The notes: generated by a model from the letters alone, not told the origin. DNA of 28,026 bases from a virus (IMGVR_UViG_2636415477_000009:1-28026), one strand, 5' to 3'. Counted from the first letter of the stretch, positions 1 through 27,274 are shown. Numbers and translations are program-made.

Positions 1-1215
1 TTATTTTTCAACCTCTGACAGGGGTAAGTAATGAGATGTCTGTAATGTCAAACTCTCTATCTCAAAGGAAATGTTGCTGATATTTTGACCTGCAAATTGC
101 GGATGCCACTCAGCGCCAGGGAATAACATTTCCGCAGAAGTAGCAACTATAGGGTCAATAGCATTAAGATAATGTAACTTATCAGGTGCGCTGTGTAACA
201 GTAACCACTGCAACTCCACTGAAGGATTTGTAAAATGTTCTAATAAATGAAAGTTATTATGTAGTACGCTTAGTAAAAAACTGGTTTCGTATACTTCCGT
301 TACATATTTCCACCCCTGATATTCAGGTGTATTTTCATAAACAATACCCATACCTTCACAATCACTATGTCGAACTGCTTGTGGTGATAATAGTTGCAAA
401 AGAGACAAAACATCGTCCGCATATTTTTTAACTGGATGACGATTTTGCTTACCTTTTATTTGATCAATTTCAAGTGAATCACCAACAACATTGAGAGCAA
501 TAGTAACATGAGGAATATTATTATTATCACGCAAACTGAATAACCGTAATTTATGTTGCTCAATTTGATTTGCATAATACTCACCATAACCACCGGTAAG
601 ATTTTTTCGATCATCAAACTGGCCTACGCAATGTTGCATATGCCATGATTCATAAGCCATTTCACGACGAAGGTTCGAATGACTGGCATCAAACTCAACA
701 ATTTTTCCGTCTGGCACATCAAGTATTGACTTTACAGTATTTTGTTCACTCGGCTGCCACCCTTTCTCGCGTCGTTGAAGCATCTTTTCATGCTCTTCTT
801 CACGCATTCTGAACGCAACGTAGCAGGTTATGCGCTGTAGTTTTGATTCCAGACGGGTACCACATTTCCTGGAAAGAAATTCCACCAACTCCCGTTCTTT
901 GGTTAATATTTGTTGATGATCGGTTTCGATATAATAAAGTGTCGCAGTTGATACTGAGGCAGTATTAAACTTCGATACCAGCCATTCCGGGATTACATCA
1001 TCATTTTTATTAAACAGTGAATATTCTGCAAGCGAGTTAATTTGTTGCACCATTGGAAAGTCACTAATTAGCCATCGATAAAAATGGTTGAGTAACCATT
1101 TTTGGATGGTCTCATTATCCTGGCGAAACAGACTTCTTTGCAAAATTGCTGTTTTTACTTCCGGGGCATTAATTACATCCCTTGCATTATAATTCTGGTG
1201 AATATTTCCAGTCAT
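1..1215 (-). CDS. Hypothetical 404-aa protein, AT-rich, likely horizontally acquired; function unassigned
   Basis: Complete ORF (ATG at 1215, stop at 1..3). Markedly AT-rich compared with neighbouring yegQ. Lies where K-12 has yegP, as I recall. No Walker A or other motif I can assign with confidence. Confidence 0.55.
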   Translation of the reverse strand: MTGNIHQNYNARDVINAPEVKTAILQRSLFRQDNETIQKWLLNHFYRWLISDFPMVQQINSLAEYSLFNKNDDVIPEWLVSKFNTASVSTATLYYIETDHQQILTKERELVEFLSRKCGTRLESKLQRITCYVAFRMREEEHEKMLQRREKGWQPSEQNTVKSILDVPDGKIVEFDASHSNLRREMAYESWHMQHCVGQFDDRKNLTGGYGEYYANQIEQHKLRLFSLRDNNNIPHVTIALNVVGDSLEIDQIKGKQNRHPVKKYADDVLSLLQLLSPQAVRHSDCEGMGIVYENTPEYQGWKYVTEVYETSFLLSVLHNNFHLLEHFTNPSVELQWLLLHSAPDKLHYLNAIDPIVATSAEMLFPGAEWHPQFAGQNISNISFEIESLTLQTSHYLPLSEVEK

Positions 1216-1702: not shown

Positions 1703-3064
1703 ATGTTTAAACCGGAACTCCTTTCCCCGGCGGGAACGCTGAAAAATATGCGTTACGCTTTCGCTTATGGCGCAGATGCTGTTTATGCGGGCCAGCCGCG
1801 TTACTCCCTGCGTGTGCGCAACAACGAATTCAACCACGAAAATCTTCAGCTCGGCATCAATGAAGCCCACGCGCTGGGGAAAAAGTTTTATGTCGTGGTC
1901 AACATTGCACCGCACAACGCCAAGCTGAAAACCTTTATCCGTGACCTGAAACCGGTGGTGGAAATGGGGCCGGATGCGCTGATTATGTCCGATCCAGGGC
2001 TGATTATGCTGGTGCGTGAGCACTTCCCGGAAATGCCAATCCACCTCTCGGTACAGGCTAACGCCGTAAACTGGGCGACGGTAAAATTCTGGCAGCAAAT
2101 GGGTCTGACCCGCGTGATCCTCTCTCGCGAACTGTCACTGGAAGAGATTGAAGAGATCCGCAATCAGGTACCGGATATGGAGATCGAAATCTTCGTTCAC
2201 GGCGCGCTGTGCATGGCCTACTCCGGTCGCTGCCTGCTCTCTGGCTATATCAACAAGCGCGACCCGAACCAGGGCACCTGCACCAACGCCTGCCGCTGGG
2301 AATATAACGTCCAGGAAGGGAAAGAAGATGACGTTGGCAACATCGTACACAAGTACGAGCCGATTCCGGTGCAAAATGTTGAGCCGACGCTGGGTATCGG
2401 CGCACCAACCGACAAAGTGTTTATGATCGAAGAAGCCCAGCGTCCGGGCGAGTATATGACCGCGTTTGAAGATGAGCACGGCACTTACATCATGAACTCG
2501 AAAGATCTGCGCGCCATCGCCCATGTTGAACGCCTGACCAAAATGGGCGTGCATTCGCTGAAAATCGAAGGCCGTACCAAATCTTTCTACTATTGCGCAC
2601 GCACCGCGCAGGTTTACCGTAAAGCTATCGATGACGCCGCTGCGGGCAAACCGTTCGATACCAGCCTGCTGGAAACGCTGGAAGGTCTGGCGCATCGTGG
2701 CTATACCGAAGGTTTCCTGCGTCGTCATACCCACGACGATTATCAGAACTACGAATACGGTTATTCGGTTTCTGACCGCCAGCAGTTTGTTGGTGAGTTT
2801 ACCGGTGAGCGCAAGGGGGACCTCGCGGCGGTAGCGGTGAAAAATAAATTCTCCGTTGGCGACAGCCTTGAGCTGATGACGCCGCAAGGCAACATTAACT
2901 TTACCCTTGAGCATATGGAAAACGCCAAAGGTGAAGCTATGCCGGTCGCACCAGGCGATGGTTATACTGTGTGGCTCCCGGTGCCGCAGGATCTTGAGCT
3001 AAATTACGCGCTGCTGATGCGTAATTTCTCCGGGGAAACCACGCGTAACCCCCACGGTAAGTGA
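1703..3064 (+). CDS. yegQ: Peptidase U32-family protein YegQ/RlhA (23S rRNA hydroxycytidine synthesis factor)
   Basis: 453-aa ORF whose sequence (MFKPELLSPAGTLKNMRYAFAYGADAVYAGQPRYSLRV...) matches my recollection of E. coli YegQ; conserved Cys-rich segment CLLSGYINKRDPNQGTCTNACRW. Confidence 0.9.
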   Translation: MFKPELLSPAGTLKNMRYAFAYGADAVYAGQPRYSLRVRNNEFNHENLQLGINEAHALGKKFYVVVNIAPHNAKLKTFIRDLKPVVEMGPDALIMSDPGLIMLVREHFPEMPIHLSVQANAVNWATVKFWQQMGLTRVILSRELSLEEIEEIRNQVPDMEIEIFVHGALCMAYSGRCLLSGYINKRDPNQGTCTNACRWEYNVQEGKEDDVGNIVHKYEPIPVQNVEPTLGIGAPTDKVFMIEEAQRPGEYMTAFEDEHGTYIMNSKDLRAIAHVERLTKMGVHSLKIEGRTKSFYYCARTAQVYRKAIDDAAAGKPFDTSLLETLEGLAHRGYTEGFLRRHTHDDYQNYEYGYSVSDRQQFVGEFTGERKGDLAAVAVKNKFSVGDSLELMTPQGNINFTLEHMENAKGEAMPVAPGDGYTVWLPVPQDLELNYALLMRNFSGETTRNPHGK

Positions 3065-3818: not shown

Positions 3819-4568
3819 TCACTGATCTCCTTCGGTCAACGGAGATTGTATTTTCCGCATTGATTCTCCTTTAAGTTCGATCTTGATACTGCCATGAACC
3901 AGTCGATCTAGGATGGCATCCGCATGTGTGGAGTCTCCGATCATTTTGTACCAGTTTTCCACCGGCAACTGGCTCACTACGATGATTGAGCCTCGTTGGT
4001 ACATCAGATCCACTATTTCCAGCAGGTCGCTACGCTGTTCTGATGAGAGAGGTTCCAGCCCCCAGTCATCCAGAAGCAGCAGATCGCTATTATTCAGCCT
4101 GGTCAAAAGTTTGCTGTATCTTCCATCAGCATGCCCCTGATAGCACTGTTCCATCAGCGCTTTAAGGCGATAATAGTAGACCTTGTATCCCTGTCGGCAG
4201 GCATTATGACCAAGTGCACATGCCAGGAACGTTTTACCGCTGCCGGTGGCCCCGGTCAGTAAAATATTTTGTTTCAGGGTTAACCAGTTTCCCTGACTGA
4301 GTGAACGGATGAGGGCCCTGTCCAGCCCTCTATTGTTACGATAATCCAGCTTTGATAACTCAGCATTAAGTCTGAACCGTGCATGTTTGATCAGACGCTC
4401 TGCCTTCCTGTTTTCACGGCAGGTTAGTTCTTCTGCTGTCAGTAATGACAGGCGTTCTTCGAAGCCCAGCTCCTGGTATGTGCCCGGCTGAGCAAGTTGC
4501 TTTTTAAGCGCATCACGGAAGCCGGTGAGTTTAAGTGCGGTCAGTTGTTCGTAAAGATGATTCATCAT
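3819..4568 (-). CDS. istB: IS21-family helper ATPase IstB
   Basis: 249 aa; Walker A LLTGATGSGKTFLACALG and Walker B LLLLDDWG; overall resemblance to IS21 IstB. Confidence 0.85.
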   Translation of the reverse strand: MMNHLYEQLTALKLTGFRDALKKQLAQPGTYQELGFEERLSLLTAEELTCRENRKAERLIKHARFRLNAELSKLDYRNNRGLDRALIRSLSQGNWLTLKQNILLTGATGSGKTFLACALGHNACRQGYKVYYYRLKALMEQCYQGHADGRYSKLLTRLNNSDLLLLDDWGLEPLSSEQRSDLLEIVDLMYQRGSIIVVSQLPVENWYKMIGDSTHADAILDRLVHGSIKIELKGESMRKIQSPLTEGDQ

Positions 4569-4579
4569 TGGATCCCGTA

Positions 4580-6121
4580 TCAGTGGTAATACTCACTGCC
4601 GCGTACGTTTTCGTGTTCCATCGTGGATAACAGATCTGGTTTTGGATCCTGAACAGGTTGTTTATCCAGACCTTTTTCCAGGATCGATTTAATACCTGAC
4701 AGACGCCATACCTTTGTTTTCAGAGCTCTTGCACATGCTGCATTAAGTCTGGCTTTACTGTATTTTTTATGAAGGTTCAGGAGTCCAAGGCAGAAGCGAT
4801 AGCTTTGTTCCGGATGTGGACGAGAGTTCAGTATATGAAGCACATAACTATGAGTTTCACTGCCTATGTGCCCCGCCCATTCCAGAAGACGCTCTGGCGT
4901 CCAGGTGGCATGCTGTCGATGAGCTTCAGGCATGTGCTCGTTGCGGGTACTGTAGCCATAAGTACGCTTGCGCGGGTGCACAGCAACCTCCTGCCCCTGA
5001 TTGAAGAGTCTTACCAGTTCTCCGGAGATCCATGCTTCCAGTTGCTGGCCTAACAGCGAACATGGAACCGAGTAGTAATGTTTGTCGATTTCCACGTGGT
5101 AATCGGCATGAACTCTGACTTTCTTCACCAGGGTGTAACTGTAACTGGCTTCAGGAAGAGGCTTCAGTGCGGGTTTATCAAGCTGGATGAAGAGTTCTGC
5201 ACGTGAATAACCCAACTTCTGCATTATTTTGTTATTCAGTCTTTCCAGCAACTCCCGAATGCGCTGATTAAGCGATGCAAGGCTGTAGAAGATCTCATGC
5301 CTGATTCGGGCCATGATCCAGCGTTCAACAACCTGAACGCCAACTTCAGCTTTGGCTTTATCTTTCGGTTTACGTGGCCGCGCAGGCAAAACTGCGACAT
5401 TATAATGCTCAAGCATCTGCTGGTAGGTAGGGTTAACGTCAGGATCATACTTACATGCCCTGGATGTGGCGCTTTTCAGATTGTCCGGAACAACAAGTTC
5501 AGGAACGCCACCCAACCACTGGAAGCAGCGAACATGACTCATCACCCAGTCTTCAAGCTGCTGAGACCAGGTGGCCTCTGCCCATGTGTAACTTGATGCC
5601 CCGAGAACAGCTACGATGACCTGAGCAGTTCTTATTTCTCCGGTCTCAGGGTCGGTAACGCCAACGGTAGGTCCACAGTAATCAACGAAAAGTTTTTCGC
5701 CAGCTTTATGTACCTGACGCATTGATGGTGAAGTGGTTTTGAGCCATTCACGGTACATCCGGCAGTAATGGTTATAGCTGTAAAAACCGCCTGGATTACG
5801 CTCACAGTATTCTTCCCAGAGTAGCTGCAGCGTCACGCATTTATTACGCAGTTCCCGGTGTACTGTAGCCCAGTCAGGCAGAGAGTGCTTCTTCATCTTA
5901 ACCTGGGTCTGAAGGAACGCATGTTTTAGTTTTGTATCATCCCATCCTGTAGGTAAGGGCCACTGCTTTATGCCAAGTTGAGCCGCCCGATTAGCATATC
6001 TGGATACAACGGAAGGGGAGATTGCAAGACTACGACCAATTTGTCGATGGCTGAGTCCAACACCGTATTTAAGCCTAAGAATTTCTTTAAGTTTTCTCAT
6101 AGAAATTGGAACTGTTGGCAT
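4580..6121 (-). CDS. istA: IS21-family transposase IstA
   Basis: 513 aa; N-terminal HTH (LSHRQIGRSLAISPSVVSRY) and an integrase-core-like middle region; sits 12 bp upstream of istB on the same strand. Confidence 0.8.
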   Translation of the reverse strand: MPTVPISMRKLKEILRLKYGVGLSHRQIGRSLAISPSVVSRYANRAAQLGIKQWPLPTGWDDTKLKHAFLQTQVKMKKHSLPDWATVHRELRNKCVTLQLLWEEYCERNPGGFYSYNHYCRMYREWLKTTSPSMRQVHKAGEKLFVDYCGPTVGVTDPETGEIRTAQVIVAVLGASSYTWAEATWSQQLEDWVMSHVRCFQWLGGVPELVVPDNLKSATSRACKYDPDVNPTYQQMLEHYNVAVLPARPRKPKDKAKAEVGVQVVERWIMARIRHEIFYSLASLNQRIRELLERLNNKIMQKLGYSRAELFIQLDKPALKPLPEASYSYTLVKKVRVHADYHVEIDKHYYSVPCSLLGQQLEAWISGELVRLFNQGQEVAVHPRKRTYGYSTRNEHMPEAHRQHATWTPERLLEWAGHIGSETHSYVLHILNSRPHPEQSYRFCLGLLNLHKKYSKARLNAACARALKTKVWRLSGIKSILEKGLDKQPVQDPKPDLLSTMEHENVRGSEYYH

Positions 6122-6235: not shown

Positions 6236-6946
6236 TTATTCAGCGATCTGTTCAAATGTTATTACCCGATCTCGATGGAAGTTATTGAGTGATCTCCTTT
6301 CATGAAAATACGCATGTGCAGTGTATTTCCCGTTAGCAAGGTCATATGCTGCTTTTACCGCTTTTGGTGTTGCGGCGAGTGTTTCAGACGTGCTGTTGGT
6401 CGCACTGCTTAACTGAGTAAAACCTTTTGCGGTCAAAGAAGCGTCCGGGTGACGTCGTGACTGTTCATGTTCTGCAATTTTGTCATCAACGTAATCCTGC
6501 GTTGCCATCACCGTTGTGGTGTCAATAGTCAGCTCCACTGAGGCCACACTGCTGACGATGATGACCATGCGGCAGGTCTGCGAACGCCCTGAGCCTTCGG
6601 CAAGGGCAGGTTTATAACTTTCGGCCATGTTCGCCACGGCAATTAACGTTCCCGCATCATCGTACAGGCCAAGCTCTCGCATCCAGAAACCGCCCACCTC
6701 CGGCGGAATAACCAGCTCTGCGATAATATAATTACTGTTTCGTTTGTCCTGGCTGATTTTGTTCAGCGCATGTCGCCAGACTTCATGGATAAGTCCGGTC
6801 TGTCCGGCATCCGGGACAGGCAATTTACCACCGCCATCCCCGACGGCCATCGTGGTAATGTTGACCTTCCGCCCTCCCGGTGCGGTTGCCGCTGCCAGCT
6901 TTGCTGCACCGGCAGTGGTGATAACGGTTCTGAATTTTGTGCTCAT
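6236..6946 (-). pseudogene. Truncated tail fibre gene H (N-terminal ~210 codons) reading into the IS end
   Basis: N-terminus MSTKFRTVITTAGAAKLAAATAPGGRKVNITTMAVGDGGGKLPVPDAGQTGLIHEVWRHALNK... matches P2 gpH, which is about 669 aa. After ...DLANGKYTA the frame runs into IS inverted-repeat sequence and stops at 6236. Confidence 0.75.
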
Positions 6947-15812: not shown

Positions 15813-17585
15813 ATGACCATCACCACAGACACCACTCTTTTGCACGACCCGCGTCGTCAGGCGGCGCTGCTGTACTGGCAGGGGTTTTCCGTGCCGCAGA
15901 TTGCCGCCATGTTGCAGATGAAACGCCCGACGGTGCAGAGCTGGAAACAGCGCGACGGCTGGGACAGCGTTGCCCCCATCAGCCGTGTCGAAATGAGTCT
16001 GGAAGCGCGGCTGACCCAGCTCATCATCAAACCGCAGAAAACCGGCGGTGACTTCAAGGAAATTGACCTGCTCGGACGCCAGATTGAACGACTGGCACGG
16101 GTAAACCGCTACAGCCAGACCGGCAACGAGGCAGACCTTAATCCGAACATCGCTAACCGCAACAAAGGCGGGCGGCGCAAACCGAAAAAGAATTTTTTCA
16201 GTGACGAGGCTATCGAAAAGCTGGAGCAGATTTTCTTTGAGCAGTCTTTCGAATATCAGTTGCACTGGTATCGCGCCGGGCTTGAGCACCGCATCCGCGA
16301 TATCCTGAAATCCCGCCAGATTGGCGCGACGTTTTATTTTTCCCGCGAGGCGCTGCTGCGCGCCCTGAAAACCGGTCATAACCAGATTTTTCTGTCGGCC
16401 AGTAAAACGCAGGCGTATGTGTTCCGCGAATACATCATCGCCTTTGCCCGGCTGGTTGACGTTGACCTGACCGGTGACCCGATTGTCCTGGGCAATAACG
16501 GCGCAAAACTGATTTTTCTCGGCACCAACTCCAACACCGCGCAGAGCCATAACGGCGACCTGTACGTCGACGAGATTTTCTGGATACCGAATTTTCAGGT
16601 ACTGCGTAAGGTGGCATCAGGTATGGCCTCACAGAGTCACCTGCGCTCGACCTATTTCTCCACCCCGTCCACGCTGGCGCACGACGCCTACCCGTTCTGG
16701 TCGGGTGAACTGTTCAACCGGGGACGCGCCAGCGCCGCCGAACGCGTGGAAATCGACGTCAGTCATAACGCTCTTGCCGGTGGGCTTCTCTGTGCGGACG
16801 GTCAGTGGCGGCAGATTGTCACCATTGAGGACGCGCTGAAAGGCGGCTGCACGCTGTTCGACATTGAGCAGCTCAAACGCGAAAACAGCGCCGACGATTT
16901 TAAAAACCTGTTCATGTGTGAATTTGTTGACGACAAGGCGTCAGTGTTCCCGTTCGAGGAGCTGCAACGCTGCATGGTCGACACGCTGGAAGAATGGGAA
17001 GACTACGCGCCGTTTGCCACCAATCCGTTCGGCTCCCGCCCGGTATGGATTGGTTACGACCCGTCACACCGTGGCGACAGCGCCGGATGCGTGGTGCTGG
17101 CACCGCCGGTGGTGGCCGGTGGCAAATTCAGAATACTTGAGCGCCATCAGTGGAAAGGCATGGACTTTGCCACCCAGGCGGAATCCATCCGCAAACTCAC
17201 TGAAAAATACAACGTCGAATACATCGGTATTGATGCCACCGGCCTCGGTGTCGGCGTGTTCCAGCTCGTGCGCTCGTTCTATCCCGCCGCGCGCGATATC
17301 CGCTACACGCCGGAAATGAAAACCGCAATGGTGCTCAAGGCAAAAGACGTTATCCGCCGTGGCTGTCTGGAATATGACGTCAGCGCCACCGACATCACCA
17401 GCTCGTTTATGGCTATCCGCAAGACCATGACCAGCAGCGGACGCAGCGCCACCTATGAGGCCAGCCGCAGCGAGGAAGCCAGCCACGCCGACCTCGCCTG
17501 GGCGACCATGCACGCCCTGTTAAATGAGCCACTCACCGCCGGTATCAGCACCCCGCTGACATCCACCATTCTGGAGTTTTACTGA
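15813..17585 (+). CDS. Terminase large subunit (ATPase) gpP
   Basis: About 590 aa from the internal start MTITTDTTLLHDPRRQAALLYWQGFSVPQIAAMLQ...; matches P2 gpP. Confidence 0.9.
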   Translation: MTITTDTTLLHDPRRQAALLYWQGFSVPQIAAMLQMKRPTVQSWKQRDGWDSVAPISRVEMSLEARLTQLIIKPQKTGGDFKEIDLLGRQIERLARVNRYSQTGNEADLNPNIANRNKGGRRKPKKNFFSDEAIEKLEQIFFEQSFEYQLHWYRAGLEHRIRDILKSRQIGATFYFSREALLRALKTGHNQIFLSASKTQAYVFREYIIAFARLVDVDLTGDPIVLGNNGAKLIFLGTNSNTAQSHNGDLYVDEIFWIPNFQVLRKVASGMASQSHLRSTYFSTPSTLAHDAYPFWSGELFNRGRASAAERVEIDVSHNALAGGLLCADGQWRQIVTIEDALKGGCTLFDIEQLKRENSADDFKNLFMCEFVDDKASVFPFEELQRCMVDTLEEWEDYAPFATNPFGSRPVWIGYDPSHRGDSAGCVVLAPPVVAGGKFRILERHQWKGMDFATQAESIRKLTEKYNVEYIGIDATGLGVGVFQLVRSFYPAARDIRYTPEMKTAMVLKAKDVIRRGCLEYDVSATDITSSFMAIRKTMTSSGRSATYEASRSEEASHADLAWATMHALLNEPLTAGISTPLTSTILEFY

Positions 17586-18619
17586 TGAGCAAGAAAAAAG
17601 GGAAAACACCGCAACCTGCGGCAAAAACAATGACCACCAGCGCCCCGAAAATGGAGGCATTCACCTTTGGTGAGCCGGTGCCGGTACTCGACCGCCGTGA
17701 CATTCTGGATTACGTCGAATGCATCAGTAACGGCAGATGGTATGAGCCACCGGTCAGCTTTACCGGTCTGGCAAAAAGCCTGCGTGCTGCCGTGCATCAC
17801 AGCTCACCGATTTACGTCAAACGTAATATTCTGGCCTCGACATTTATCCCGCATCCGTGGCTTTCCCAGCAGGATTTCAGCCGCTTTGTGCTGGATTTTC
17901 TGGTGTTCGGTAATGCGTTTCTGGAAAAGCGCTACAGCACTACCGGTAAGGTCATCAGACTGGAAACCTCACCGGCAAAATATACCCGCCGTGGCGTGGA
18001 GGAGGATGTTTACTGGTGGGTGCCATCCTTCAACGAGCCGACACCTTTCGCGCCCGGCTCCGTGTTTCACCTGCTGGAGCCGGATATCAATCAGGAGCTG
18101 TACGGCCTGCCGGAATATCTCAGCGCCCTTAACTCTGCCTGGCTGAATGAGTCGGCCACGCTGTTCCGCCGCAAGTATTACGAAAACGGCGCACATGCCG
18201 GATACATCATGTACGTCACCGATGCCGTGCAGGATCGCAACGATATCGAAATGCTTCGCGAAAACATGGTGAAGTCGAAAGGCCGCAACAACTTTAAAAA
18301 CCTGTTTCTCTACGCCCCACAGGGAAAAGCCGACGGTATTAAAATTATCCCGCTCAGTGAAGTGGCAACGAAGGACGATTTTTTTAATATCAAAAAAGCC
18401 AGCGCCGCAGACCTGCTGGACGCGCACCGCATCCCTTTTCAGTTGATGGGCGGCAAGCCGGAGAACGTCGGGTCGCTGGGTGATATTGAGAAAGTGGCAA
18501 AGGTCTTTGTCCGCAATGAGCTTATCCCGTTACAGGACAGGATCCGCGAGATAAACGGCTGGCTCGGTCAGGAGGTCATCCGCTTTAAAAACTACTCACT
18601 GGACACTGACAACGGCTGA
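17585..18619 (+). CDS. Portal protein gpQ
   Basis: 344 aa; matches P2 gpQ; start overlaps the P stop. Confidence 0.9.
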   Translation: MSKKKGKTPQPAAKTMTTSAPKMEAFTFGEPVPVLDRRDILDYVECISNGRWYEPPVSFTGLAKSLRAAVHHSSPIYVKRNILASTFIPHPWLSQQDFSRFVLDFLVFGNAFLEKRYSTTGKVIRLETSPAKYTRRGVEEDVYWWVPSFNEPTPFAPGSVFHLLEPDINQELYGLPEYLSALNSAWLNESATLFRRKYYENGAHAGYIMYVTDAVQDRNDIEMLRENMVKSKGRNNFKNLFLYAPQGKADGIKIIPLSEVATKDDFFNIKKASAADLLDAHRIPFQLMGGKPENVGSLGDIEKVAKVFVRNELIPLQDRIREINGWLGQEVIRFKNYSLDTDNG

Positions 18620-18624
18620 ACATC

Positions 18625-18646
18625 GCCGCCTGCGGGCGGCTTTTTT
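18625..18646 (+). terminator. Rho-independent terminator after gpQ
   Basis: gccgcctgcgggcggc hairpin followed by tttttt, a few bp after the Q stop. Confidence 0.7.
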
Positions 18647-18788
18647 ACACCCCGTCATCACGCCCTCACACGCTCACCACCGCACAAAACAGCCCGCATA
18701 CACACCAACGCCCCGGCGAACAATCCAAACGCCATCACGACGCGCTCAGACGCTGAAAAAATAAAATCAGCACCACCGCCAGCGCGCA

Positions 18789-18807
18789 GTGCTTTCCCCG
18801 CCTCGCC
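18789..18807. other. cos site (19-nt cohesive-end sequence)
   Basis: gtgctttccccgcctcgcc is the reverse complement of the P2 cohesive end GGCGAGGCGGGGAAAGCAC as I recall it; position next to Q matches P2. Confidence 0.75.
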
Positions 18808-19011
18808 CGCCCGCTTCGTGGGGCGGTTTTAATGCAGATGCATGTGAACACTCGAGATTGACTGGATAAGACCTAAGGTGCATTAATTTTTTGTTTTTTT
18901 ACATGCAGTTTGATGCAAGAACATGCCCTCTAAAGTCTTGGTTTAATGTGCTACACTTTTATACAAACCTATGATAAAAGCGATAAAAAATCTTCCATTT
19001 TGGCGAACATT

Positions 19012-19995
19012 ATGACGGATATTGAAACAGCTCGATGGAACACAGAAAGTGCCGCTTTGTTGGCACTATCAGAAATACATGGCGTTAGTTATTGGACTCT
19101 ATATAAAGTTGCTCAAAAGGGAATCAGATTTAGAGACATTGTTACCAGCCAAACATTAGCCAACTTTGAGTATCTACTTGGAGTAAAACTTCATCGCCAA
19201 CCTTATTATTTGAATGAAGGCAATTGGTCTGTTTTTCGGGACAGCATGATTTCTACGGCTAAAATATTACTCACACATTATCATAATAGTGGTTACAAAA
19301 TCATCCACCATGGTTCTCCGAGCTATCCAGACAAGTTGAATGACCTGTCTGAGCCGCCTTTCTGGTTGTTTGCTCAAGGCAATGTATCCTTGCTAGATAA
19401 AAAGTGTGTTGGAGTTGTCGGCACCAGAAACCCAACCGCACTTGGAATTTATTTAACTCAAGCAGTAATCTCGCAATTTATAGATTCGGATTATTCAACT
19501 GTAAGCGGTTTAGCATATGGTATAGATCAATCTGCACATGAAGCATCCCTGTTATTTAAAATACCGACAATTGCTGTGTTAGGTACTGGCGTAAACTCAA
19601 ATTATCCCAAAAATAGTGGCGAGATGAGAGGCCATATTGTAAATAATGGCGGACTGATTCTTACTGAGTATTTACCAAACCAAAAACCATCACAGGAAAA
19701 CTTTGTTCGTAGAAATAGAATTCAAGCAGCTTTAAGTGATGTATTGATCCCAGTTGAATGGGGCCTAAAAAGTGGGACATCTCATACTGTGAGATATGCT
19801 GCTCAATTAAAAAGAGCGATACTTTGTCCTTTACTTAGGGGAACTACACCTCAAGAAGAGATTAAACATGCCTTGTCAGAGTACTCAGCTACGATAATGA
19901 ATATTCCACTATCCGATTTTAAAGACGTGCAAAGCTTAATTAAATCAGCATCCGGTGTAAAAACACAGCAACTTTCTCTTCTGGGAGATGAATAA
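19012..19995 (+). CDS. DprA/Smf-like (SLOG-type Rossmann fold) protein; first gene of the hotspot cargo operon
   Basis: Motifs matching the DprA family: PDKLNDLSEPPFWLFAQGNVSLL, GVVGTRNPTALG, SGLAYGIDQSAHEASL, IAVLGTGVNSNYPKNSGEM, ENFVRRNRIQAALSDVLIPVEWGLKSGTSHT. AT-rich. Start uncertain: ATG at 19012 (MTDIE...) preferred, upstream in-frame ATG at 18946 possible. Confidence 0.75.
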   Translation: MTDIETARWNTESAALLALSEIHGVSYWTLYKVAQKGIRFRDIVTSQTLANFEYLLGVKLHRQPYYLNEGNWSVFRDSMISTAKILLTHYHNSGYKIIHHGSPSYPDKLNDLSEPPFWLFAQGNVSLLDKKCVGVVGTRNPTALGIYLTQAVISQFIDSDYSTVSGLAYGIDQSAHEASLLFKIPTIAVLGTGVNSNYPKNSGEMRGHIVNNGGLILTEYLPNQKPSQENFVRRNRIQAALSDVLIPVEWGLKSGTSHTVRYAAQLKRAILCPLLRGTTPQEEIKHALSEYSATIMNIPLSDFKDVQSLIKSASGVKTQQLSLLGDE

Positions 19996-19996
19996 T

Positions 19997-21271
19997 ATGT
20001 ATTTAAAGGCAGTTATATTTTCAATCGCAGATGTTGTATTACCATTAACATCTAACACTCAACCTCAGGAACTAAAATCTAGAATCGACTCTGAATTACG
20101 TAAGTTGTTTGCGTTTTTGTCATCAAAAGGGATTAAAGTTATCTTCTTGACAAATAAAAATAGAAACGTGAGAACACATGACGGGATCGTAACACTAGAC
20201 GAATACCTAAAAAGGAAATTCCCAGAATCAATTCACTTTTGCCGTGAACTCGACAACAACATACCAGCAAAACAAACAGGGAAGGCCATAGATTTCATCA
20301 TGGCTGCGTTAGAATTAAAACGAAACGAAATGATCTATGTAGGGCGTTCTCAGGAAGACTTACAAGCAGCTACCAACGGGAATACCCTATTTATTAATGC
20401 GACCTGGTATGAACCGGTTACTGAGTACGGTTTTCAATTTTCAGAACCCAAAGAAATCGCTAGATTTATTGATGTCTTTTGCTTAAGAGAGCAGTTGTGG
20501 GGATGGCAAGGGCATTTTAATGAAGATGTTCACTACTACGCCTTAGCACCATTTAGCACATATGTCCCTGAATTTACAATGTATTCAGCCAATGCAAGAG
20601 ACCTCGCAAAGCTATCGGTTGGAAGCCCCGATTTTTGGATAAGATATCTTGGTGCTAGCATTTATTTCTCTGGCTTAAGTGAAGGAGCAAGTTTTATAAC
20701 CACCTACGTTGGACATAACGCTGAAGATCCTTATAAACTAGCAAACATTATGGAGCATGACCTAAAAGGTTTAGCAGTCTCATTCAAAGGAAAGTATCTA
20801 AAAGATCTATTCTTACGACATACAACAGCTATTAAATCACAGCAAGCTCGGATAGCTAAGCAAGAAGTAAACATCACATCTCAAATAAACACCGTTAATT
20901 TAAATCCTGCCCCTATTAAAAACCTCATCACCGGCGAAAGATATACCAACCCTCCTAAATTGAAAGGTAAGAAAATATTAGTTATTGATGATTTTTGCAC
21001 TGAAGGAAATGCTCATGAAACAGCCAGAATGTATCTAAAAGCTGCAGGCGCAAATGTAATAAATATATCGTGGTTAAAAACCATCAATCGTGACGTTTCT
21101 ATCTGTGAACCAACTCGCAAGATACGGCCATGGGAGGCCAATACACTTGATGTTGATGACATTAACTATGTCGGTACGATTGGTTATGCTGAAAATGTAA
21201 CTCACGGTAGTGCACCTCAAGTGTTATCAGAAAAAATTCAACAATATGATAACTGGGACTGGCCACAATAA
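19997..21271 (+). CDS. Phosphoribosyltransferase-domain protein (C-terminal type-I PRT motif; N-terminal ~300 aa unassigned, possibly degenerate HAD-like); second cargo gene
   Basis: C-terminal KGKKILVIDDFCTEGNAHETARMYLKAAGANV fits the PRPP-binding loop of type-I PRTases. N-terminus has AVIFSIADVVLPLT and MIYVGRSQEDL, weakly reminiscent of HAD motifs I and IV. SD-like gggag precedes the ATG at 19997; an ATG at 19988 overlaps the upstream stop. Confidence 0.7.
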   Translation: MYLKAVIFSIADVVLPLTSNTQPQELKSRIDSELRKLFAFLSSKGIKVIFLTNKNRNVRTHDGIVTLDEYLKRKFPESIHFCRELDNNIPAKQTGKAIDFIMAALELKRNEMIYVGRSQEDLQAATNGNTLFINATWYEPVTEYGFQFSEPKEIARFIDVFCLREQLWGWQGHFNEDVHYYALAPFSTYVPEFTMYSANARDLAKLSVGSPDFWIRYLGASIYFSGLSEGASFITTYVGHNAEDPYKLANIMEHDLKGLAVSFKGKYLKDLFLRHTTAIKSQQARIAKQEVNITSQINTVNLNPAPIKNLITGERYTNPPKLKGKKILVIDDFCTEGNAHETARMYLKAAGANVINISWLKTINRDVSICEPTRKIRPWEANTLDVDDINYVGTIGYAENVTHGSAPQVLSEKIQQYDNWDWPQ

Positions 21272-21287
21272 ATTAATCCCATAATTT

Positions 21288-21317
21288 AAAGTGCCCCCTA
21301 ATAATGGGAGGCACTTT
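21288..21317. terminator. Bidirectional terminator between the cargo operon and gene A
   Basis: Palindrome aaagtgccccc-taataat-gggaggcacttt with T/A runs on both sides, between convergent genes ending at 21271 (+) and 21447 (-). Confidence 0.55.
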
Positions 21318-21446
21318 AAATATTAAGAAGATAATGTCATTAAGCGAAATTTAACTATAATTTAAAACATTACAATTATTATTTTTTAAAGTTTACTATT
21401 ACCCAATCCATCAATAAGACCTGTATTTATTCGTAATTTAATAGCC

Positions 21447-23702
21447 TTACCACTCATCAATCACTGGATATTTGAATTTTTTATTATCATAAATCACCAT
21501 CGCCCCACGCGCCAGCGCCTCAAGCTCCCATCGCTGAGGCCTGATACCGTTCTGAGCAAGGTCAACGCGGATACGGGTAATTTGCAATCGTTCCGGCCGG
21601 GTCAGCCTGGCCGATGGTGCAATTTCATGTGGTTTTAACGGGCTTCCGTTTCTTTGCTGACGATTTGGTGTTCTCAGGCCGTGTTTTAATGCGCCCCTGA
21701 GCACCCTCACGACCTCCGGGTCATTCCATTCGATAACACCGTCATCAACCAGATTAAGCACTGCTGCGGCGTGTTCAGAAGGTGTGGGAGCCGGTAACGA
21801 AGTATCACCACTGGTGAGCTTTCCACAGTTATTGACAGGACTCCGAGGCGCGGCGATGCCGCTTTTTAAAGTCAAAGGCTCAACGACCGGCACTTTCGGA
21901 ACAATGCGCCAGTCCGTCGTTCTGGTGATATGAATATGACGCGCGCCGAGATGCGGCGCGTAAATGCCGACCACTCTCTCGACTTCTTCCTCGTACTCGT
22001 TAACTTCATCCGACGGACTACGGGCAACCCTGACAGTCTGACAATCGCGCGGGACATTTGCCCCGCCCTGCGCGCTGATATACAGCGCAAAATCGCCACT
22101 GTCTGCGGCGGCGCGTGCAGCCTCCACGCGTTCGTCAAATTCATCAGCAATGCTGACGCCGCGAGGCAATTTACGTAGCTCACGGTAAGCTCCCATTGTC
22201 GGCAGGCCAACCGTTTTAAATTGCGGGATGCGCCACGTTGACGCCCATGCGGTAACAGCCGCCGCAGTATCTTTCAGCGGTCTGCCGGTATCGTTATCGA
22301 GCTGACCGTCCAGTGCATAGCCGTCGATATTTTTTGAAATGTATTTCGCGATATATCCCGCAGCACCGCCCCGGTTAAGGTGTTTTGCCTGAAAACGGTT
22401 TCGCGCGGCTCCTCTTTCGTCGCCATCCTCTTTGAGCGCATAGCGACGCATGATTTCGATAATCTGGTTACGCTGGCGTGGATTACAAAAAAGCATCATA
22501 TGCCAGTGCGGCGTTCCGTCGTGGTGTGGCTCGACGACTCGCAAACCGTAGACCTGTAAATCATTATCCTTGAATGCCGTGCGCATCAGGCTCCAGATAC
22601 GGCAGAGATAACGCTGCGCATCCTTTGGATTAAATGCCTCATCGTTCCAGCCGTGATTAAGCTGGACGGTTTTACTTTCGCCTTTTCCGACCTGACGTGT
22701 CGGGTGATACTTTGACGGCGCGGTCAGCGTGATAAACATGCCCACATCGCCCTCTGCGGCGGCGTAACGCTCAATACCGGCAATGGTGTTCATCAGCTCC
22801 ATCCGGCGAATTTCAGGATTAGAAATACTGCCCATCACCTTACTGATAAGGTCGATGCGCTCGCCGGTTTCCCTGTTTTCAAGGTCACACGATTTAAGAA
22901 ATTCCAGATTTGCCTGGCGGCGCGCACGCACATCACGAATGGCATGTTTACTGGCATAAGGAGAACGGTCTTTATTGACCTCCCCGACAGCAATCAGTAA
23001 CGCCTCATGCCAGCGCATACGCTGGCCTTTAAGCTGATGAGTCCACCACTCATCGTTAAACAGACGGGCAATGGCAGAATATGCCTGCCTCGTGGTCATC
23101 TGTCCTTTACGGTATTTTTTCCAGTAGAGAGGGGAAATATTGAAAGCACGTGCAGCGCCAGCAACATGACCATACAGATGCGCCTGCGCCTCATCTGTAA
23201 ACAGCGATTCTTTCTCGCCATGTGCATCAACCCATGCATCGCAGAGTTCCTCATACATCATGAAAAGCTGCGATGAGATACGGGCGGCAAACTTTTTCAG
23301 CTCCTTGTCATTCATCCCCGGCAGACGCGCATAATGGTCACGCTCTGCCAGAAACAGCAACGACGCGTCGGTATTCATTTCATGGCGCTGATTCACGCGC
23401 TCAATACGCGGCCATAAACGGCGCTGAAAAGTGGATGTGAGGAAATAAAACCCGTGCACCGGGCTTTTATTGCGCCGGATGTAGTCATAGCGTGAAGTAA
23501 ACAGCGAGCGCAAAAAGTAAGGCAGGCGATTAATCGTGGATAAAACACCTTGCACCTGACGCATCTCGTCACGTGTAAGGGGTCTTTCGCGCCCGACGGC
23601 CTCGCGTGGCGCGTTCCATGCATAAGCACCGGTAAACGTCTCACCGGTGCCTGCGGCAAATACTGACGGAGGGACAAAACGCCCGGAGGCTTTAACGGCC
23701 AT
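21447..23702 (-). CDS. Replication initiation protein gpA (rolling-circle initiator)
   Basis: About 751 aa from the internal start MAVKASGRFVPPSVFAAGTGETFTGAYAWNAPREAV...; matches P2 gpA. The tracked ORF extends to 23744. Confidence 0.9.
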   Translation of the reverse strand: MAVKASGRFVPPSVFAAGTGETFTGAYAWNAPREAVGRERPLTRDEMRQVQGVLSTINRLPYFLRSLFTSRYDYIRRNKSPVHGFYFLTSTFQRRLWPRIERVNQRHEMNTDASLLFLAERDHYARLPGMNDKELKKFAARISSQLFMMYEELCDAWVDAHGEKESLFTDEAQAHLYGHVAGAARAFNISPLYWKKYRKGQMTTRQAYSAIARLFNDEWWTHQLKGQRMRWHEALLIAVGEVNKDRSPYASKHAIRDVRARRQANLEFLKSCDLENRETGERIDLISKVMGSISNPEIRRMELMNTIAGIERYAAAEGDVGMFITLTAPSKYHPTRQVGKGESKTVQLNHGWNDEAFNPKDAQRYLCRIWSLMRTAFKDNDLQVYGLRVVEPHHDGTPHWHMMLFCNPRQRNQIIEIMRRYALKEDGDERGAARNRFQAKHLNRGGAAGYIAKYISKNIDGYALDGQLDNDTGRPLKDTAAAVTAWASTWRIPQFKTVGLPTMGAYRELRKLPRGVSIADEFDERVEAARAAADSGDFALYISAQGGANVPRDCQTVRVARSPSDEVNEYEEEVERVVGIYAPHLGARHIHITRTTDWRIVPKVPVVEPLTLKSGIAAPRSPVNNCGKLTSGDTSLPAPTPSEHAAAVLNLVDDGVIEWNDPEVVRVLRGALKHGLRTPNRQQRNGSPLKPHEIAPSARLTRPERLQITRIRVDLAQNGIRPQRWELEALARGAMVIYDNKKFKYPVIDEW

Positions 23703-23967
23703 ATGAGCCAAAAGCCTCTGAACAACGCTTGCTGAGTTGCTCAACCTGCGCGTTTAAATCAGCAAAAGACTTTGCGCTTCCGGTCAGAATATCGTGATGC
23801 ATCAGGCCGGAAACGAGCTGGCTTAATTTCGGGTAATAACCAACCACCGCCAGCCATTCCTGACCGGCGTTTTTACCGCTTTCAGCTCTCTTTTTCTCGT
23901 GGAGAATAAACTGAAAGCTGTCACTGGTAACGACATAACGTTCGCCAATTTCAATACGAATACTCAT
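23692..23967 (-). CDS. Small early-operon protein (P2 orf83 position)
   Basis: 91-aa ORF overlapping the A start; one of four small ORFs between B and A, as in P2. Confidence 0.6.
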   Translation of the reverse strand: MSIRIEIGERYVVTSDSFQFILHEKKRAESGKNAGQEWLAVVGYYPKLSQLVSGLMHHDILTGSAKSFADLNAQVEQLSKRCSEAFGSYGR

Positions 23968-26260: not shown

Positions 26261-27274
26261 ATGGCAATCAAAAAACTCGATGATGGTCGATATGAAGTGG
26301 ACATCCGCCCTACTGGACGTAATGGAAAACGCATCCGTAGGAAGTTTGATAAGAAAAGCGAAGCTGTCGCTTTCGAGAAATACACGTTGTACAACCACCA
26401 CAATAAAGAATGGCTATCAAAACCAACAGACAAACGACGTCTGTCGGAACTGACACAGATCTGGTGGGATTTAAAGGGTAAACACGAAGAGCATGGGAAA
26501 TCTAATCTTGGAAAAATTGAAATCTTCACAAAAATAACGAATGACCCATGCGCATTTCAAATCACGAAATCCCTTATCAGCCAGTACTGCGCCACCCGAA
26601 GAAGTCAGGGTATTAAACCTTCGAGTATCAATCGTGATTTAACATGTATTAGCGGCATGTTTACAGCCCTGATTGAAGCGGAGTTATTCTTTGGTGAGCA
26701 CCCTATCAGAGGGACAAAGAGGCTTAAGGAGGAAAAACCAGAAACAGGCTATCTCACACAGGAAGAAATTGCCTTACTGCTTGCAGCACTTGACGGCGAC
26801 AATAAAAAGATTGCGATTCTTTGCCTGAGTACAGGAGCACGTTGGGGAGAAGCAGCTCGTTTGAAAGCAGAAAATATCATCCATAACCGCGTCACGTTTG
26901 TTAAAACGAAAACAAACAAACCACGCACCGTCCCGATCTCAGAGGCTGTTGCCAAAATGATCGCGGATAACAAACGAGGTTTTTTATTCCCTGGTGCTGA
27001 TTACCCTCGCTTCAGACGAACAATGAAAGCAATAAAACCGGATTTGCCAATGGGGCAAGCCACACATGCACTAAGGCACAGCTTTGCCACTCATTTCATG
27101 ATTAATGGAGGAAGTATTATCACGCTACAACGGATACTAGGTCACACGCGGATTGAGCAAACGATGGTTTACGCTCATTTTGCGCCAGAGTACCTTCAGG
27201 ACGCCATTTCTCTTAATCCGCTAAGAGGTGGTACTGAGGCCGAGAGTGTCCACACAGTGTCCACAGTAGAGTAA
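26261..27274 (+). CDS. int: Tyrosine integrase
   Basis: 337 aa; C-terminal HALRHSFATHFMINGGSIITLQRILGHTRIEQTMVYAHF carries the R..HxxR..Y catalytic signature; adjacent to attR. Confidence 0.9.
   Translation: MAIKKLDDGRYEVDIRPTGRNGKRIRRKFDKKSEAVAFEKYTLYNHHNKEWLSKPTDKRRLSELTQIWWDLKGKHEEHGKSNLGKIEIFTKITNDPCAFQITKSLISQYCATRRSQGIKPSSINRDLTCISGMFTALIEAELFFGEHPIRGTKRLKEEKPETGYLTQEEIALLLAALDGDNKKIAILCLSTGARWGEAARLKAENIIHNRVTFVKTKTNKPRTVPISEAVAKMIADNKRGFLFPGADYPRFRRTMKAIKPDLPMGQATHALRHSFATHFMINGGSIITLQRILGHTRIEQTMVYAHFAPEYLQDAISLNPLRGGTEAESVHTVSTVE

Follow-up and report, generated by a model that had tools for sequence, protein, structure and literature searches.

A degenerate HAD-fold domain accompanies the toxic phosphoribosyltransferase of ShosT, a toxin encoded in a P2-like prophage hotspot

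What does a phosphatase-like fold do in front of a phosphoribosyltransferase (PRTase) when the residues that define its chemistry have been replaced? The question is raised by a gene at positions 19,997 to 21,271 of IMGVR_UViG_2636415477_000009:1-28026, a viral stretch of 28,026 nucleotides (nt) that is referred to below as the window. A preliminary description of the gene, made from the sequence, presented its product as a 427-residue protein in which a PRTase motif follows an N-terminal extension of about 300 residues, and degenerate motifs resembling those of the haloacid dehalogenase (HAD) superfamily were taken as signs of an inactivated phosphatase-like fold with a new use as sensor or scaffold or, alternatively, of an unrelated domain. 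The analysis reported here identifies the gene as ShosT, which is the toxin in ShosTA, an anti-phage toxin-antitoxin system of two genes whose antitoxin is the DprA-like protein ShosA. The explanation that best accounts for the locus, to which we assign a probability of about 0.85, is that ShosT is cargo of a P2 hotspot, that its PRTase domain is the toxic part, and that its degenerate HAD domain serves as an accessory module binding phosphate or inorganic pyrophosphate (PPi).

The identity of the protein can be seen directly. The open reading frame (ORF) product is 100% identical over its full length of 427 residues to the ShosT chains of PDB entries 8ZVB (chain A), 8ZVC, 8ZVD, 9W2P, and 9W2Q, and the PADLOC ShosT profile PDLC03012 matches residues 1-427 with an E-value of 4e-296. 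A co-oriented, DprA-like shosA lies directly upstream, its stop codon ending 1 nt before the shosT ATG, and the acidic pair expected of a PRTase that binds phosphoribosyl pyrophosphate (PRPP) is present in the motif VIDD at residues 332-335. ShosT is therefore already known as an E. coli protein with crystal structures in the PDB. As the shosT start follows the shosA stop so closely, the arrangement suggests translational coupling of the two genes.

Two in-frame ATG codons are available for shosT. The ORF 19988..21271 (+) encodes 427 residues counted from the first ATG and 424 residues counted from the ATG at 19997; the preliminary description had rightly recognized the ORF, but had paired the start of the shorter version with the length of the longer one. 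The Shine-Dalgarno sequence GGGAG at 19983-19987 lies 9 nt before ATG 19997 but directly abuts ATG 19988, shosT homologues begin at the Met equivalent to ATG 19997, and both structural papers number ShosT from 1 to 424 (Pu et al. 2025, PMC11961720; Yang et al. 2026, PMC12961424). Because of this spacing, these homologue N-termini, and this numbering, the sequence favours 19997 over 19988, although the RefSeq entry WP_001062015.1, labelled 'hypothetical protein', starts at 19988 and has 427 residues. Residue numbers below follow the 427-residue version unless the papers' numbering is stated; the former equals the latter plus 3. For shosA, the longest ORF begins at 18946 (349 residues), the PADLOC match covers its residues 23-349, and both RefSeq and PADLOC begin at ATG 19012 (327 residues), so the first 22 codons of the long ORF are probably not translated.

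ShosT consists of two domains of Rossmann type, and the crystal structures place the boundary between them at residue 164/165 of the papers' numbering (PMC11961720, PMC12961424), the structure of Pu et al. 2025 having been solved at 1.7 A (PMC11961720). The accessory N-terminal part is thus about 164 residues long rather than about 300, and the region from residue 165 to about 325 already belongs to the PRTase domain. The PRPP-binding motif KKILVIDDFCTEGNAHET was found at 20969-21022, close to the position first proposed for it (about 20965..21020), and it falls late in the protein because the PRTase domain itself comprises about 260 residues, with long PPi and flexible loops. In a single-sequence search the Pfam Pribosyltran model reaches ShosT only below threshold (E 1.1e-4, residues 306-360). 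Of the features of a type I PRTase, the PRPP loop is seen in the sequence, and the crystals show PRPP, PPi, and flexible loops. D334 and D335 are invariant in 45 homologues, and the corresponding double mutant D331A/D332A of the papers abolishes toxicity (PMC11961720), as does R285E according to the ShosT literature; the requirement for PRPP-binding residues was also reported by Yang et al. 2026 (PMC12961424). The latter authors confirmed the architecture and called the PRTase non-canonical, being a monomer with a nine-residue PPi loop and a six-stranded sheet (PMC12961424). For this identical protein, neutralization of toxicity by ShosA and protection against phage have been reported in the ShosTA papers, and ShosA neutralizes ShosT without binding it (PMC11961720). 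When each half of ShosT was scanned alone, no other defence family in PADLOC shared either domain at E<=1.

The N-terminal part adopts a HAD fold. Single-sequence searches with ShosT gave HAD and PRTase matches that were all sub-threshold (Pfam, NCBIfam, and phmmer against the PDB), including PF00702 at E 3e-4 and PF13419 at E 5e-3, both below the gathering score; for this reason a family profile was needed for significant HAD matches. Built from 28 N-terminal domains and searched against the PDB, this profile retrieved the HAD phosphatases 2HI0 (E 1.2e-6), 3KZX (6e-4), and 2GO7 (7e-4), followed by 2OM6. Its register on 2HI0 pairs FLTN with VVSNK at motif II, PAKQ with RRKP at motif III, and YVGRSQEDLQAATN with YIGDSEIDIQTARN at motif IV. 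An AlphaFold2 (AF2) model of residues 1-169 has a pLDDT of 91.5 and a TM-score of 0.94 to 8ZVB, and with this model Foldseek found 82 PDB hits at E<=1e-3. Of the 50 matches listed, the three at the top are entries of ShosT itself, and all 47 that follow belong to the HAD superfamily, including the pyrophosphatase BT2127 (3QUQ and 3QU4; E 1.8e-4 and TM-score 0.68 for 3QUQ). Membership of the HAD superfamily at the level of the fold, with its Rossmannoid alpha/beta core, is thus established by structure prediction and fold search together with the description of the crystals, and the resemblance noticed at the outset is borne out.

The catalytic residues present a different picture. In the HAD superfamily, motif I reads DxDx(T/V), with the first Asp as nucleophile and the second activating water as general acid/base; motif II contributes a Ser or Thr at the end of strand 2, a Lys forms motif III, and Mg2+ is bound by motif IV, G(D/N)xxxD. 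Competent HAD phosphatases transfer the phosphoryl group in an Mg2+-dependent reaction via an aspartyl-phosphate intermediate. The nucleophile, the Asp two positions after it (Asp+2), and the first motif-IV ligand are essential in HAD enzymes (PMC12357310). The two HAD-like strings of the preliminary description, AVIFSIADVVLPLT and MIYVGRSQEDL, were recovered at nt 20009-20050 and 20330-20362, and their key aspartates are indeed replaced: motif I of ShosT reads S-I-A-D-V instead of DxDx(T/V), and motif IV reads G-R-S-Q-E-D, with Arg as the first ligand and the last Asp kept. Support for the register of motif I comes from the T/V and L positions after it and from a sub-threshold alignment with 3KZX, VIFDWYNTL to vilsvedvi.

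Column counts were made over 115 sequences, namely ShosT and 114 homologues of at least 380 residues, and a wider sample of 161 full-length HAD-PRTase fusions was also examined. Among the 115 sequences, the nucleophile column holds Ser in 96, Gly in 16, Thr in 1, Ala in 1, and Asp in none, and the residue at Asp+2 varies (E, R, A, S, among others). In the wider sample, the nucleophile Asp is missing from 148 of 161 fusions (Ser in 107, Gly in 33, and Ala in 4 of those 148) and present in 13, and its loss coincides with loss of the first motif-IV Asp. That first motif-IV position, residue 120, is Ala in 37, Ser in 31, Asn in 26, and Arg in 21 of the 115 sequences, ShosT having Arg. As for the remaining motif positions, the motif II column contains T (69), A (22), S (15), and G (8), with Thr in ShosT; next to it, N56 occurs in 113 of 115 sequences. 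The motif III column is Lys in 108 and Arg in 7, G119 is conserved, and the last motif-IV Asp, D124, is found in all 115. The motif III lysine, K92 in the papers, makes a water-mediated contact with phosphate (PMC11961720). D15 was also considered as a conserved nucleophile in a shifted position (D 91, N 16, G 4, and H 2 in its column) and was rejected, as the T/V-L pattern sets the register one turn earlier.

As these columns show, ShosT and its sampled relatives have lost the phosphoaspartyl-transferase machinery and have kept the phosphate-binding half of the site (Thr-Asn, Lys, and the last Asp). The N-terminal domain is nearly as conserved as the PRTase domain, with 37% versus 40% identity among distant homologues. 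Conservation is highest over residues 121-170 and not around motifs I and II, the last 50 residues of the domain being strongly conserved. This distribution points to selection acting on the domain, though not on canonical HAD chemistry. In the main text of Pu et al. (PMC11961720) the words 'nucleophile' and 'aspartate' do not occur, and 'haloacid' and 'HAD' are absent from the main text of Yang et al. (PMC12961424); neither main text, therefore, discusses the HAD catalytic motifs.

More distant relatives differ from ShosT in these positions. When 1.84 billion representative proteins were searched with the N-terminal-domain profile, 1145 matched at E<=1e-3 and 112 of these at E<=1e-10. Besides proteins resembling ShosT, the matches include more distant HAD-PRTase fusions of about 380-407 residues from metagenomes (P0226, P0235, P0222, and P0223, for example), here called clade B. 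Nearly all members of this clade retain the nucleophile Asp, and several are fully canonical, with both DxDGT and GDxxxD: P0226 reads IVDLDGTVI and YLGDTDHDM, and P0235 reads LFDLDGTLV and YIGDNDRTDA. Clade B proteins pass the gathering scores of Pfam HAD_2 (36-58 bits against a cut-off of 23.8) and Hydrolase, and their matches to the PADLOC ShosT profile have E-values of 1e-24 to 1e-43. In all 4 of the 4 cases with a complete upstream gene, clade-B shosT lies directly downstream of a gene matching PADLOC ShosA (E 1e-69 to 1e-79). Given the pairing with ShosA and the intact motifs, the HAD-PRTase fusion is old in ShosTA, and its catalytic aspartates have disappeared in the lineage of ShosT; an active HAD enzyme was probably part of the ancestral fusion. 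The preliminary description had held that homologues with a canonical DxD motif would speak for an active phosphatase. Such homologues exist in clade B and are absent among ShosT's own relatives, and their presence in a distant clade bears on ancestry, not on the activity of the ShosT in the window.

Several further observations were made around these relatives. A ShosT-like group of intermediate position (P0184, P0186, P0196, and P0187) has 'L(I/V)SPxGT' or 'LVSVTGT' as motif I, with Ser at the nucleophile position followed by a canonical-like G-T, and may represent a transitional state between the two clades. In one clade B locus (L008) a RecD2-like helicase gene is located upstream of shosA, and in another (L005) a small ORF on the opposite strand with a weak LSDAT_prok match is found upstream.

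How the degenerate domain might contribute to the toxin can now be considered. In the accessory-module reading that we favour, the PRTase domain (165-424 in the papers' numbering) binds PRPP-Mg and constitutes the toxic activity, as published, and the HAD domain would bind phosphate, PPi, or a phosphorylated ligand beside it, supporting the fold, stability, or turnover of the toxin. Any PPi hydrolysis by the HAD domain would be slow and non-canonical, unlike that of a classical Mg-dependent HAD phosphatase. The R56A substitution lowers toxicity just marginally (PMC11961720), which is counted in favour of an accessory role. The term 'inactivated' is nevertheless too simple, because the published PPi hydrolysis, the bound phosphate, and the near-invariant N56, K95, and D124 indicate that the domain is not simply dead.

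Certain points weigh against an accessory module. Pu et al. (PMC11961720) measured PPi consumption by purified ShosT, found orthophosphate in the HAD pocket of 8ZVD after co-crystallization with PPi, and interpreted it as belonging to a true pyrophosphatase domain whose action draws the PRTase reaction forward. If this activity is robust, 'accessory binder' understates the HAD domain. No N-terminal truncation or pocket mutants (K92A, D121A) are reported in the main texts of the ShosT papers. In addition, the motif I register was derived from patterns in the sequence and a single sub-threshold alignment, and the sampling of clades is biased to ShosT's own relatives, from which the search profile was built.

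The published interpretation is accordingly the first alternative to be weighed: the HAD domain would be a genuine inorganic pyrophosphatase, Mg-independent and with a mechanism unlike that of HAD enzymes, which removes the PPi formed by the PRTase and so drives phosphoribosyl transfer. Besides the phosphate in the pocket, the consumption of PPi by 1 uM ShosT, weak and Mg2+-independent, and the structural similarity to BT2127 support it (PMC11961720), the latter also being found by our Foldseek search; the pocket residues N53, K92, and D121 (papers' numbering) are conserved as well. However, the nucleophile Asp, the Asp+2, and the first motif-IV ligand, all essential in HAD enzymes, are missing together, and a weak, Mg-independent pyrophosphatase is hard to reconcile with their absence. 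The assay is a single end-point measurement, with no control by a catalytic mutant described in the main text of Pu et al. The residue whose mutant serves as 'PPase-dead', R56 (R59 here; nt 20162-20164), is Trp in 72 and Arg in 16 of the 115 homologues, and the phenotype of R56A is the marginal one given above. Moreover, since PPi preparations commonly contain orthophosphate, bound phosphate is no proof of hydrolysis. Taken together, a genuine pyrophosphatase is possible but doubtful.

A bolder proposal goes in the opposite direction and is put forward only tentatively. The HAD domain of E. coli-type ShosT could be a pseudoenzyme without physiologically relevant hydrolysis, whose pocket of N53, K92, and D121 binds PPi, orthophosphate, or a phospho-metabolite and thereby gates or stabilizes the PRTase. 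The published pyrophosphatase would then be a misread fold match, and the true bifunctional enzyme would be that of clade B, with its intact motifs, which might remove phosphate from the product of the PRTase rather than act on PPi.

A regulatory sensor, in which the degenerate pocket would bind a phospho-metabolite, nucleotide, PPi, or orthophosphate and allosterically switch the PRTase during infection, appears unlikely. Conservation of the ligand pocket without the catalytic residues agrees with it; since no binding occurs between ShosT and ShosA, control of the toxin must be indirect; and RqlH's PRTase domain by itself is not toxic and requires its N-terminal helicase domain (RqlH literature). 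Against this, no conformational change of the N-terminal domain was seen on phosphate binding (PMC12961424), the published trigger models work through ShosA instability or through ShosA, RecA, and single-stranded DNA and not through ShosT, and no candidate ligand is known. The weakest alternative, that the first 300 residues are a single large extension outside the PRTase, or have a fold with no relation to HAD, draws on the short reach of the Pfam PRTase model and has a negligible probability, the crystals having assigned residues 165-424 to the PRTase and the model of residues 1-169, with its agreement with 8ZVB and its exclusively HAD-superfamily non-self matches among those listed, having excluded an unrelated domain.

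The genomic setting of the gene agrees with known ShosTA loci. The shosTA pair is carried by a P2-like prophage remnant as cargo of its variable, cos-proximal hotspot and lies in an island of low GC content (0.38 over 19-21 kb, compared with about 0.52-0.57 in the flanks). Rousset et al. 2022 described a cos-adjacent P2 hotspot with a DprA+PRTase system that protects against T7 and lambda. In RefSeq E. coli the same locus is flanked by the genes for the portal protein and the replication endonuclease. Among 5426 complete E. coli genomes, the flanks (portal and gpA) match in 2156, and the full ShosTA cargo (18600-21460 in the window) is present in 30. Terminator-like hairpins are located between Q and shosA at 18625-18640 and 18807-18826. 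Between 18600 and 21500, a promoter scan gave no match above the expectation from shuffled sequence and a terminator scan found none after shosT; a tRNA search across the window found none. The P2-like prophage is a remnant, in which a tail-fibre ORF of just 236 residues (6236..6946, -) abuts an IS21-type element. The features of the locus and of its distant counterparts are collected in the table.

Table 1. Coordinates of ShosT, its motifs, and surrounding features (window positions in nt; the last feature row refers to separate loci)
Feature	Position	Strand	Basis or remark
shosT, toxin	19997..21271	+	424 aa (427 aa from 19988); 100% PDB identity; PADLOC 4e-296
HAD-fold N-terminal domain of ShosT, residues 1-164 (424-numbering)	19997..20488	+	crystal boundary; AF2 model; family profile
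Motif I remnant S-I-A-D-V-V for D-x-D-x-(T/V)-(L/V)	20021..20038	+	Ser at nucleophile Asp site, Ala at Asp+2 site
Motif II, T55-N56 (427-numbering), T52-N53 (papers)	20150..20155	+	aligned to VVSNK of 2HI0; published phosphate contacts
Motif III lysine, K95 (427-numbering), K92 (papers)	20270..20272	+	aligned to RRKP of 2HI0
Motif IV remnant G-R-S-Q-E-D for G-(D/N)-x-x-x-D	20342..20359	+	aligned to IGDSEIDIQTARN of 2HI0
PRTase (toxic) domain of ShosT, residues 165-424	20489..21268	+	crystals with PRPP-Mg; Pfam Pribosyltran
PRPP-binding loop KKILVIDDFCTEGNAHET with D331/D332 pair (papers' numbering)	20969..21022	+	sequence; published mutants
shosA, DprA-like antitoxin, 327 aa	19012..19995	+	Pfam DNA_processg_A 9.8e-60; PADLOC ShosA 2.2e-231; RefSeq DprA WP_001389235.1
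Noncoding stretch Q-shosA, left edge of cargo hotspot	18620..19011	.	Q terminator hairpins; P2-like cos position
P2-type portal gene Q, left hotspot flank	17585..18619	+	RefSeq 'phage portal protein'
P2-type replication gene A, right hotspot flank	21447..23744	-	Pfam Phage_GPA 3.2e-124; RefSeq 'replication endonuclease'
Integrase	26261..27274		in the window
IS21-type transposase	4580..6121	-	IS21-type element
IstB	3819..4568	-	IS21-type element
Peptidase U32, non-phage	1703..3064		left of IS21-type element
PcfJ-like ORF, non-phage	1..1215		left of IS21-type element
Distant ShosA-ShosT operons, canonical HAD motifs	L002 721-3115; L005 1471-3784; L007 85-2446; L008 2793-5200		metagenomes and one NCBI assembly

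These results describe a textbook case of prophage-borne anti-phage cargo whose protein has been solved and partly characterized, and nothing categorically new is contained in it. The residual point is that a domain published as a pyrophosphatase is devoid of the catalytic residues that define HAD enzymes, while distant ShosTA systems keep them. This loss across the relatives of ShosT, set against an intact clade, is the one point that lies outside the main texts of the papers, and it is a modest one. The mismatch does provide a testable handle on what the accessory domain contributes to the toxin. The RefSeq label 'hypothetical protein' for ShosT could also be upgraded.

Comparison with known systems places ShosT of the window precisely. 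Relative to E. coli ShosT, as represented by the PDB entries and the P2-hotspot DprA+PRTase system (Rousset et al. 2022), it is the same protein with the same upstream ShosA in the same slot between the portal gene and cos on one side and gene A on the other. No difference exists in the protein, and only the RefSeq start, three codons upstream, and the RefSeq label deviate. With clade B it shares the two-domain architecture (about 390 residues there) and the ShosA-like DprA gene upstream, whereas the canonical DxDGT and GDxxxD motifs and the Pfam HAD gathering scores of clade B are both lacking in ShosT. The usual type I PRTases have a five-stranded core and are dimeric or hexameric; ShosT, in contrast, has a six-stranded sheet, is monomeric, and carries a nine-residue PPi loop.

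Among HAD proteins, the Bacteroides thetaiotaomicron HAD-type inorganic pyrophosphatase BT2127 and subfamily-IA phosphatases such as 2HI0 have the Rossmannoid HAD core in common with ShosT, and the Ser/Thr of motif II, the Lys of motif III, and the last Asp of motif IV align. ShosT differs from them in having no Asp nucleophile, Asp+2, or first metal ligand, and sequence identity is 12-19%. Its cap is far smaller than that of 2HI0, as motifs I and II are separated by about 40 residues, compared with an aligned core segment starting at about residue 106 in 2HI0. The C-terminal domain of murine CMP-sialic acid synthetase (3EWI; Foldseek rank 23, E 2.5e-4) is likewise a HAD fold fused to a nucleotide-metabolizing enzyme and exemplifies the non-catalytic HAD-like modules. 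It belongs to a different HAD subfamily (KDO8P-phosphatase-like) and is tetrameric and eukaryotic. That domain acts as an oligomerization platform and is not known to act as a phosphatase, which may make it a functional analogue of the accessory role considered here for ShosT.

PsyrT, or RqlH (PsyrTA being the same system as RqlHI), offers the remaining comparison. The PADLOC PsyrT models gave no match to ShosT at E<=1, so the relationship is drawn entirely from the literature. Both toxins have a toxic, non-canonical C-terminal PRTase and a DprA-like antitoxin with no classic tight complex, and in both cases toxicity takes the form of filamentation and genotoxic stress. The N-terminal partner is a RecQ-like helicase in PsyrT/RqlH and a HAD fold in ShosT. 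By analogy, the dependence of RqlH toxicity on its helicase domain fits an importance of N-terminal partners in these toxins.

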